This document shows positions 11,978-12,050 of a stretch of 12,857 nucleotides of DNA, piece after piece (position 1 is the first letter of the stretch; each line of letters starts with the position of its first letter). The translations under genes were made by a program, and so were the position numbers. The notes beneath the pieces were generated by a model. It was not told the origin of the DNA and ran no database searches. It saw only the letters and a list, made by a program, of their open reading frames with translations. The DNA comes from a virus. The stretch lies in IMG/VR virus record IMGVR_UViG_3300009860_000879; one strand, given 5' to 3'.

Positions 11978-12050
11978 CCTCTTGTAGCTCAGTTGGTAGA
12001 GCACCTATCTCTAAAATAGTTAGTCGCCGGTTCGATCCCGGTCAAGAGGT
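11978..12050 (+). tRNA. Amber suppressor tRNA (anticodon CTA, reads UAG)
   Basis: Acceptor CCTCTTG / CAAGAGG is a perfect 7 bp. D-arm GCTC-AGTTGGTA-GAGC. Anticodon stem (C)CTAT/ATAG(T) is 4 bp plus one mismatch at 27-43. Loop is CTCTAAA with T33 and A37, so anticodon CTA. T-arm GCCGG-TTCGATC-CCGGT. Discriminator T then the CAA trailer shared with the main array. Confidence 0.75.

Follow-up and report, generated by a model that had tools for sequence, protein, structure and literature searches.

A tRNA-CUA gene and an amber-led PTH2 gene form a conserved cassette in huge phages, a candidate translational switch

We analyzed a viral DNA stretch of 12,857 nucleotides (nt) from IMG/VR virus record IMGVR_UViG_3300009860_000879 (hereafter the window, meaning this whole stretch), focusing on a tRNA gene with the anticodon CUA (tRNA-CUA) near its right end. 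An earlier reading made from the letters alone (the sequence-only reading) had taken this gene as an amber suppressor tRNA and had connected it with a TAG-interrupted gene for a PTH2-type peptidyl-tRNA hydrolase in the same window. Between the two genes lies a third one, encoding a conserved protein of 111 amino acids (p111). The features concerned are as follows.

9951..10307, plus strand: PTH2-type peptidyl-tRNA hydrolase gene with an in-frame amber codon (Pfam PF01981); ATG at 9951, 8-codon leader MRKDTGGG, TAG at 9975-9977, domain at 9978-10304, TGA at 10305-10307
9975..9977, plus strand: the UAG codon predicted to gate PTH2, followed by ATT (A at +4)
11606..11941, plus strand: p111, conserved 111-amino-acid helical protein (tblastn, 61 loci), ending 36 nt before tRNA-CUA
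11978..12050, plus strand: tRNA-CUA, amber suppressor (ARAGORN, Rfam RF00005, family alignment)
12011-12013, plus strand: anticodon of tRNA-CUA; the discriminator is U73, CAA stands at 12051-12053 and CCA is not encoded
12073..12726, plus strand: conserved 217-amino-acid protein just downstream of tRNA-CUA, found in 20 loci

ARAGORN, which detected seven tRNAs in the window, called a 74-nt tRNA at 11978-12051(+) with the anticodon cta at position 34. Rfam RF00005 aligned over its full length (model positions 1-71 of 71) to 11978-12050, with 62.7 bits against a gathering score of 29 (E=6e-12), the third-ranking score among the eight tRNA matches in the window. The two programs concur, giving neither a different fold or anticodon nor a low covariance-model score, and the cloverleaf described by the sequence-only reading was recovered in every part. 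Specifically, the acceptor stem CCTCTTG/CAAGAGG consists of seven Watson-Crick pairs, the D-loop is AGTTGGTA (8 nt) with G18 and G19, T8 and A14 being also present, and the 7-nt anticodon loop reads C32 T33 C34 T35 A36 A37 A38 (CTCTAAA), so that T33 and A37 flank the anticodon. The variable loop is TAGTC (5 nt) and the T-arm is GCCGG-TTCGATC-CCGGT. The sole non-pair is C27/T43, which had been pointed out before and is also flagged by Rfam. The gene has U8, A14, G18G19, U33, a purine at 37, G53-T54-T55-C56, A58 and C61, all of which are invariant or nearly so in 50 related suppressor tRNAs. It is also located apart from the main tRNA array (27-1076), as had been claimed.

On the other hand, the claim that the trailer of tRNA-CUA matches those of the other tRNAs held for only some of them. 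CAA follows the discriminator in four of the six array tRNAs (Phe, Glu and both Leu), but Pro has CCA and Tyr has CTC at this place. C74 is found in all six, and C74 followed by an A-rich trailer implies 3' trimming and CCA addition, as predicted from these letters. Counted over the window, CAA stands after the discriminator in 5 of 8 tRNAs; "A-CAAA" is found in most of the suppressor tRNAs of relatives (~60 loci), where an encoded CCA is rare.

Note that ARAGORN labels the gene "tRNA-Pyl", which is merely its name for a CUA anticodon. We rejected this label on structure. The tRNA pylT has a short D-loop without G18G19, a 3-nt variable loop, a 6-bp anticodon stem and no T-psi-C, and pylS and pylBCD genes are found alongside it. 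tRNA-CUA, in contrast, has a canonical GG D-loop, a 5-nt variable loop, the T-loop TTCGATC and an anticodon stem of 4-5 bp, and no pyl genes were present among the Pfam matches of the window. A pseudogene was likewise rejected, given the Rfam score and the covariation in the family described below. The gene is, as judged from its sequence and structure, a genuine and well-formed amber suppressor tRNA gene.

Related loci were collected by searching PTH2 alignments in 23 viral contigs, GenBank phages and 80 metagenome contigs, and the ~105 loci obtained were tabulated by local tblastn and ARAGORN. They contain 65 distinct suppressor tRNAs, 61 with CUA and 4 with UUA anticodons. When the window tRNA-CUA was aligned with 49 other suppressors, the cloverleaf was 94.6% paired and changes on both sides were seen in 19 of its 21 pairs. 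The covariation score was 0.845, as against 0.249 in shuffles (0 of 500 reached 0.845) and at most 0.158 for slid structures, indicating that the tRNA is under selection for its cloverleaf and CUA anticodon. Among all tRNAs of the loci, the 17 best matches of the window tRNA-CUA were other suppressors, which argues for an orthologous lineage and against a recent mutant of a sense tRNA. Its closest relative (L044, whose PTH2 is 88% identical) keeps both CUA and C27/U43 and shows compensatory acceptor-stem changes. An exact-pattern scan for the window tRNA-CUA in viral contigs gave no match.

The mismatch at the top of the anticodon stem recurs in the family. Positions 27:43 or 31:39 are unpaired in 33 of 65 suppressors and in 29 of 144 other tRNAs of the same loci (Fisher p=1.5e-5, for sequences that are not phylogenetically independent). 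According to one report (PMC13092985), amber and ochre suppression increases when the top anticodon-stem pair is opened. Given this report and the enrichment of weakened end pairs in the family, C27/U43 is more likely a feature than a defect.

The amino acid carried is less clearly marked. Discriminators of the suppressor tRNAs vary (A in most, G in L044, U in the window), BLAST of tRNA-CUA against annotated phage and E. coli tRNAs gave a mixture of Gly, Lys, Thr, Val, Ala and Ile matches, and its best non-suppressor matches are scattered across 16 isotypes. Gln and Lys are the usual fates of bacterial CUA tRNAs. As a separate observation, a UUA-anticodon (ochre-type) tRNA stands in place of CUA by PTH2 in L040 (LR745208, 4411-4487), L041 (Lak-A1, 3239-3311) and L065. 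Lak-A1 has this UUA anticodon though Lak phages are reported to be TAG-recoded; a UUA anticodon could read UAA as well as UAG.

The TAG-interrupted PTH2 gene proposed by the sequence-only reading proved real. PF01981 matched with 35.3 bits against a cut-off of 23 over profile positions 2-114 of 115. The domain begins directly after the TAG, and the next ATG, GTG or TTG comes only at 10155, far into the domain. The family profile matches the solved Pth2 structures 2zv3 (E=2e-9), 1rzw and 1q7s, and the HMMER alignment places the invariant phage motif F-R-E-P-D on I-R-D-A-G of 2zv3, and PG-x-Q on GKGK. In two related loci the gene starts with ATG AAG TAG GTA (L001) and ATG ACA TAG ATT (L005), and tRNA-CUA lies 0.6-0.7 kb downstream of each. 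L005 has in addition a truncated second PTH2 start at ~1931-2000 (ATG ACT TAG ATT AAT CAC AAA ...), 0.8 kb upstream of the full gene. Its 21 residues are 81% identical to the window PTH2 N-terminus, and we regard this copy, judging from its sequence, as a remnant of a cassette duplication. In the 735-kb genome LR756501, PTH2 contains a second in-frame TAG and tRNA-CUA is present as a tandem pair; homologues have E, T, S, Q, V or D at the site of this second TAG, which does not reveal the inserted residue.

We then dereplicated the loci to 77 PTH2 clusters at 95% identity. In 72 of them ATG, 0-11 codons and TAG stand directly before the PTH2 domain, one has an ATG and short leader closed by TAA, and four have an ordinary start; at 80% identity the TAG leader is found in 31-32 of 36 clusters. 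Its carriers include LR756500, LR756501/3, LR745206, LR756504 and LR756502, which are among the largest known phage genomes, as well as the Tenacibaculum phage pT24. "Mahaphage" genomes of 462-735 kb are among them, and LR756500 and LR756501 were described as "Mahaphage" huge phages with predicted Bacteroidetes hosts (PMC7162821). A T4-like Aeromonas phage with a distant PTH2 homologue has neither a TAG leader nor a suppressor tRNA.

Leaders vary in length and sequence (MK, MT, ME, MTH, MKKPFYY, MRKDTGGG and others) while the TAG stays fixed. Ordinary open reading frames (ORFs) of the same loci end in TAG in 9% and in TAA in 76% of cases, indicating that the leader TAG is more than a mere terminator, for which TAA would be expected. 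The codon following the TAG in 66 distinct leaders is ATT (37), GTA (11), GTT (6) or one of ATA, AAC, ACT, AGC, CTT, ATC, ACA and GTG, many of which are unable to act as starts, and nearly all loci have no ATG, GTG or TTG ahead of the conserved KLxVITRRDL strand. Of these leaders, 47 have A directly behind the TAG, 18 have G, one has C and none has T (purine in 65/66). A purine at this place was reportedly found by Bossi in 1983 to favor amber suppression. In pT24, the annotated coding sequence BPT24_235 has its start within the conserved PTH2 domain, 43 codons past the TAG.

Linkage was counted in the 57 TAG-leader loci whose flanks extend 2.3 kb or more downstream of the TAG and 0.3 kb or more upstream of it. 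A cta tRNA (in one case tta) was present within ~2.6 kb in 54 of the 57, at a typical distance from the TAG of 0.8-2.1 kb downstream or ~135 nt upstream. The only TAA leader found (ATG ACG TAA, in L028) is accompanied by a tRNA with a UUA anticodon. In the mycobacteriophages Bxz1 and Myrna, tRNA-CUA lies 130-300 nt downstream of the PTH2 gene, pointing to an adjacency that is either ancient or recurrent.

The gene for p111 is almost always located between PTH2 and the suppressor tRNA, as found by tblastn over its 61 loci. The protein had no match in Pfam or PHROG; its AlphaFold model has four helices at a predicted local distance difference test score (pLDDT) of 86, and a fold search gave no match in the PDB better than E=2. 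Weak matches to the N-terminal helices of release factor 2 (RF2) (E about 5, TM 0.32) were discounted as evidence. The window has four extra genes between PTH2 and p111 and retains the adjacency of p111 and the tRNA (36 nt). Taken as gene order and sequence conservation, these data indicate that tRNA-CUA is a component of a conserved cassette, with the compact form [PTH2 with N-terminal UAG]-[p111]-[tRNA-CUA]. As for the 217-amino-acid protein downstream, which is 57-60% identical to syntenic genes in L001 and L005 and has no Pfam or PHROG match, it appears to be a syntenic neighbour and its membership in the cassette is uncertain.

Given the TAG in 72 of 77 clusters, the linked cta or tta tRNA in 54 of 57 loci and the one case where TAA and UUA vary together, the TAG of PTH2 is the best candidate codon for tRNA-CUA. 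We consider it likely that tRNA-CUA is a functional amber suppressor that gates PTH2, and that the cassette is a translational switch. PTH2 would then probably be made only when tRNA-CUA is active, even in phages with the standard code. According to this model, a ribosome would start at the ATG and, after a short leader (8 codons in the window, 0-11 in relatives), encounter the UAG ahead of the first strand of PTH2. If release factor 1 (RF1) wins at this codon, only a di- to nonapeptide would be made. If tRNA-CUA is present, processed, CCA-tailed, charged by a host synthetase and able to outcompete RF1, the ribosome would go on and PTH2 would be produced. As the outcome at the UAG would be set by tRNA-CUA versus RF1, PTH2 output would report suppressor activity relative to RF1. 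A stop at the very start would avoid a truncated protein, and the residue would be inserted at a non-conserved position where any amino acid may be tolerated. The purpose is most likely to match peptidyl-tRNA recycling, or hydrolysis of N-blocked aminoacyl-tRNA, to read-through or low RF1. PTH2 supply would rise with suppressor activity or falling RF1, when ribosomes would overrun or wait at terminators and peptidyl-tRNAs would accumulate. PTH2 may also serve in counter-defence, in view of what is known of Pth enzymes and GNAT toxins (PMC9241777) and of the rescue role proposed for phage PTH2 (PMC7824862), both taken up below.

Several observations weigh against this reading. Three TAG-leader genomes (LR745206, LR756504 and LR756502) have no suppressor tRNA within 4 kb, the only range scanned, and the TAA/UUA co-variation is a single locus whose PTH2 also has a mid-gene frameshift. 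One locus (L078) keeps tRNA-CUA next to a PTH2 with a normal ATG start, and ordinary PTH2 starts adjoin the UUA-anticodon tRNAs of Lak-A1 and LR745208, indicating that the suppressor tRNA is not retained solely for the PTH2 codon. In Bxz1 and Myrna the start reads ATG/GTG-TAG-GTG, and a Shine-Dalgarno sequence stands at the right distance from the second GTG, so that PTH2 can start there without suppression; gating in these two phages is, from this arrangement, doubtful. In the window itself, GGAGG stands 4 nt ahead of the ATT after the TAG, which makes Shine-Dalgarno-driven initiation at AUU a local alternative. The phage PTH2 is without the GKGK motif of archaeal Pth2 and has Glu aligned to the archaeal Asp, and its substrate may therefore differ. 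The window of 12.9 kb contains neither structural nor lysis genes, and the code was thus read outside the late genes. Read-through, charging and PTH2 activity are all predictions from sequence.

The alternative that fares best, which we nevertheless consider unlikely, is that tRNA-CUA belongs to a reassignment of TAG (code 15-like) in late genes, with PTH2 as just one recoded gene among many. There is good documentation of phages that have reassigned TAG and carry suppressor tRNAs in regions of standard code (Borges et al. preprint), and recoding is also found in Lak phages, which share the Mahaphage clade (Al-Shayeb 2020). The gene content of the window, as mentioned, suits this possibility, as does the rarity of TAG as a terminator in it (1-2 of 22 ORFs). 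However, every confident window gene except PTH2 is intact in the standard code, and one of them (7723-8277) ends in TAG. Cassette carriers also have the standard code. In pT24 (234,670 bp), 273 ORFs of our own ORF set end in TAA (233), TAG (33) and TGA (7), the TAG-ended ones including a 1480-amino-acid helicase and the large terminase, and nothing is gained from reading TAG as sense. A genome-wide scan of pT24 for an ATG, a short leader, a stop and a long ORF without an early start gave PTH2 as the only clear TAG case, and this genome has one suppressor tRNA. In LR756500 (462,018 bp, 24% GC), 622 ORFs, again of our own set, end in TAA (507), TGA (86) and TAG (29), and coding coverage is 0.893 with the standard code versus 0.896 with TAG as sense. 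This genome has a single suppressor tRNA, which adjoins PTH2, and also a tmRNA.

Furthermore, a synonymous TAG would drift to a sense codon among orthologues that are 45-88% identical, and the TAG is instead fixed. No other gene consistently interrupted by TAG was found in the ~105 flanking regions, where off-frame ORFs swamped a comparison of all flanks with one another for conserved in-frame TAGs. For the first five loci, the ORF coverages obtained with alternative codes were uninformative. The sequence-only reading had suggested looking for an RF2 gene elsewhere in the genome; a crude motif test for genes of the RF1/RF2 type (GGQ[HNS][VI][NQ]) gave no match in any frame of the window, pT24 and LR756500. 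Its statement that the virus can decode UAG as sense is thus kept for the suppressor tRNA and its best candidate codon in PTH2, and is not borne out as a genome-wide code change by the standard-code genes of the window and its relatives. By these comparisons, the cassette appears to be a dedicated translational switch and not a sign of a changed code throughout the genome.

Note that LR756500 has two further ORFs consisting of an ATG, a short leader, a TAG and a long frame, namely 255827(-) (L130; MII-TAG-KEKVF..., 354-codon frame) and 437639(+) (L133; MKNIVKHKEV-TAG-IKHL..., 140-codon frame). These could be further amber-gated genes or ordinary genes with a later ATG.

A second alternative, to which we give a still smaller chance, dispenses with suppression. 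Here ATG-x-TAG would be a tiny upstream ORF, comparable to a start-stop element or to the lambda bar minigenes, PTH2 would be made by reinitiation or from a non-canonical start, and tRNA-CUA would serve elsewhere. Very short ORFs cause peptidyl-tRNA drop-off and so yield the substrate of Pth, which fits such a minigene. The codon after the TAG is ATT or ATA, which are rare starts, in 39 of 66 leaders, and the Shine-Dalgarno sequences noted above ahead of TAG-ATT in the window and of TAG-GTG in Bxz1 and Myrna also agree with it. However, a plain terminator should be mostly TAA, yet TAG is found in 72 of the 73 leader-bearing clusters. In 25 of the 66 leaders the next codon (GTA, GTT, CTT, AAC, ACA, ACT or AGC) is two changes from AUG, with no start before the first strand. 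In addition, a minigene predicts neither the linkage with a cognate tRNA nor the TAA/UUA case.

The least probable alternative, hardly to be expected, is that the tRNA is directed at the host or at its defences, reading through host or phage TAG terminators or evading tRNA-targeting defences while the PTH2 amber times a helper that clears peptidyl- or N-acetyl-aminoacyl-tRNAs, as might be suggested by the persistence of suppressor tRNAs beside normal PTH2 starts (L078, Lak-A1 and LR745208), by the 5-12% of the phages' own ORFs that end in TAG and would be extended, by the detoxification of GNAT-toxin-acetylated tRNAs by Pth enzymes (PMC9241777) and by the ribosome-rescue role proposed for phage PTH2 (Iyer et al., PMC7824862), but no conserved target besides PTH2 was found, and the idea is compatible with a PTH2 switch, differing only in which function came first.

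We also put forward, tentatively and as a possibility less likely than the gating itself, that the PTH2-p111-tRNA-CUA cassette is a self-contained switch that huge Bacteroidota phages with the standard code retain for the sake of the switch itself, that it may, by preserving a working suppressor tRNA in such genomes, have been a stepping stone to genome-wide TAG recoding as in Lak, and that p111 might be a new factor with the suppressor tRNA, RF1 or PTH2 as its target.

The cassette resembles the recoded phages (Lak, crAss-like and other clades; Ivanova 2014; the model of Borges et al. 2022) in having a UAG-cognate tRNA in a standard-code region and an in-frame UAG that would make translation of a phage gene tRNA-dependent, as well as in its Bacteroidota-type hosts and AT-rich genomes. 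It differs from them in that its conditional gene is a single translation-maintenance enzyme and not a set of structural or lysis genes. Moreover, the UAG is at a fixed site right after the start, and complete relatives keep TAG as a normal terminator. A looser analogy may be drawn with prfB, where an in-frame UGA lets RF2 sense its own level. In both cases an early in-frame stop in a translation-factor gene would sense termination, and failed termination would give the full-length protein. However, prfB bypasses its UGA by +1 frameshifting and senses its own product, whereas the cassette would use a suppressor tRNA and make a hydrolase, and there is no homology between them.

Like the cassette PTH2, the jumbo-phage PTH2 (Iyer et al. 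2021, PMC7824862) and the "peptidyl tRNA hydrolase" of cluster C mycobacteriophages belong to PF01981. The mycobacteriophage gene has a GTG with a proper Shine-Dalgarno sequence after the TAG, and the Bacteroidota-type family lacks GKGK. The bar minigenes of phage lambda share with the PTH2 leader the unit of ATG, codon and stop and a link to Pth through peptidyl-tRNA drop-off. Unlike the leader, they are not fused in frame to Pth, have UAA or UGA stops and are not linked to a suppressor tRNA.

In the literature, peptidyl-tRNA hydrolase is not mentioned in the Borges et al. preprint, suppressors are not mentioned by Iyer et al. (PMC7824862; 0 occurrences), and the pT24 genome announcement mentions neither suppressors nor the hydrolase. 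No description of an amber-gated PTH2/p111/tRNA-CUA cassette was found in the searchable literature, whose coverage is incomplete. Phage suppressor tRNAs and phage PTH2 are thus each known, and their conserved cassette in standard-code phages is apparently new. So far, phage suppressor tRNAs have been explained through genome-wide recoding, and their presence in standard-code phages was left open. The cassette provides such a tRNA with a definite target codon that is conserved, would tie stop-codon read-through to peptidyl-tRNA recycling and might plausibly have been the initial stage on the way to recoding. A direct test is possible in a cultured phage that carries the cassette (Tenacibaculum phage pT24). 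For annotation, it is of consequence that gene callers truncate or miss amber-led PTH2, BPT24_235 of pT24 being an example.

The cassette is embedded in a window whose genes are all on the plus strand and whose GC content is ~30%, except in the tRNA array at its left end, which is richer in GC. The other features are listed below.

27..1076, plus strand: main tRNA array, Phe-GAA, Glu-TTC, Leu-TAA, Pro-TGG, Leu-TAG and Tyr-GTA (ARAGORN, Rfam); context, not part of the cassette
1196-1654, plus strand: Hsp20 (Pfam)
2112-2549, plus strand: pyrimidine-dimer glycosylase (Pfam)
3900-6356, plus strand: 818-amino-acid protein with major-vault-protein shoulder and repeat and SPFH/Band 7 domains (Pfam; no PHROG match)
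8752-9612, plus strand: radical SAM enzyme (Pfam)
10863-11291, plus strand: cytochrome c (cbb3-type, E=4e-7) with an N-terminal lipoprotein-like signal (Pfam)

Megablast of the whole window against phage records gave no match, nor did exact-protein look-ups for two window proteins. The same p111 sequence is recorded for a 12,857-bp JGI contig, of which the window is the whole. The major-vault-protein-like protein shares 69% identity with one on L001, a 323-kb IMG/VR contig, and 50-55% with proteins encoded by LR756500 (462 kb) and LR756501. It is kept at 40-69% identity across huge phages, and its eukaryote-like domain set is unusual for a phage. Among the 22 listed ORFs, only that of Hsp20 is preceded by a clear AGGAGG ribosome-binding site within 20 nt of its start.

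Directly upstream of the radical SAM gene are three tandem paralogues (7349-7738, 7723-8277 and 8255-8752), which share the N-terminal motif ..IPVHSxIDLITNSSTEIF.. (blastp E=1e-7 to 1e-16). The middle one is the window's only confident TAG-ended gene, and read-through would add 8 codons to it. Finally, an eighth tRNA-like element was detected at 3242-3313(+) by Rfam (49.2 bits) and missed by ARAGORN. Its acceptor, D and T arms are intact, and the 17-nt region of the anticodon arm cannot pair. The orthologue in L001 (7547-7618) keeps the three arms, differs in the middle and is called "tRNA-??? (aa)" by ARAGORN. The element may represent either a degenerate tRNA or a structure that resembles a tRNA and has some other role.

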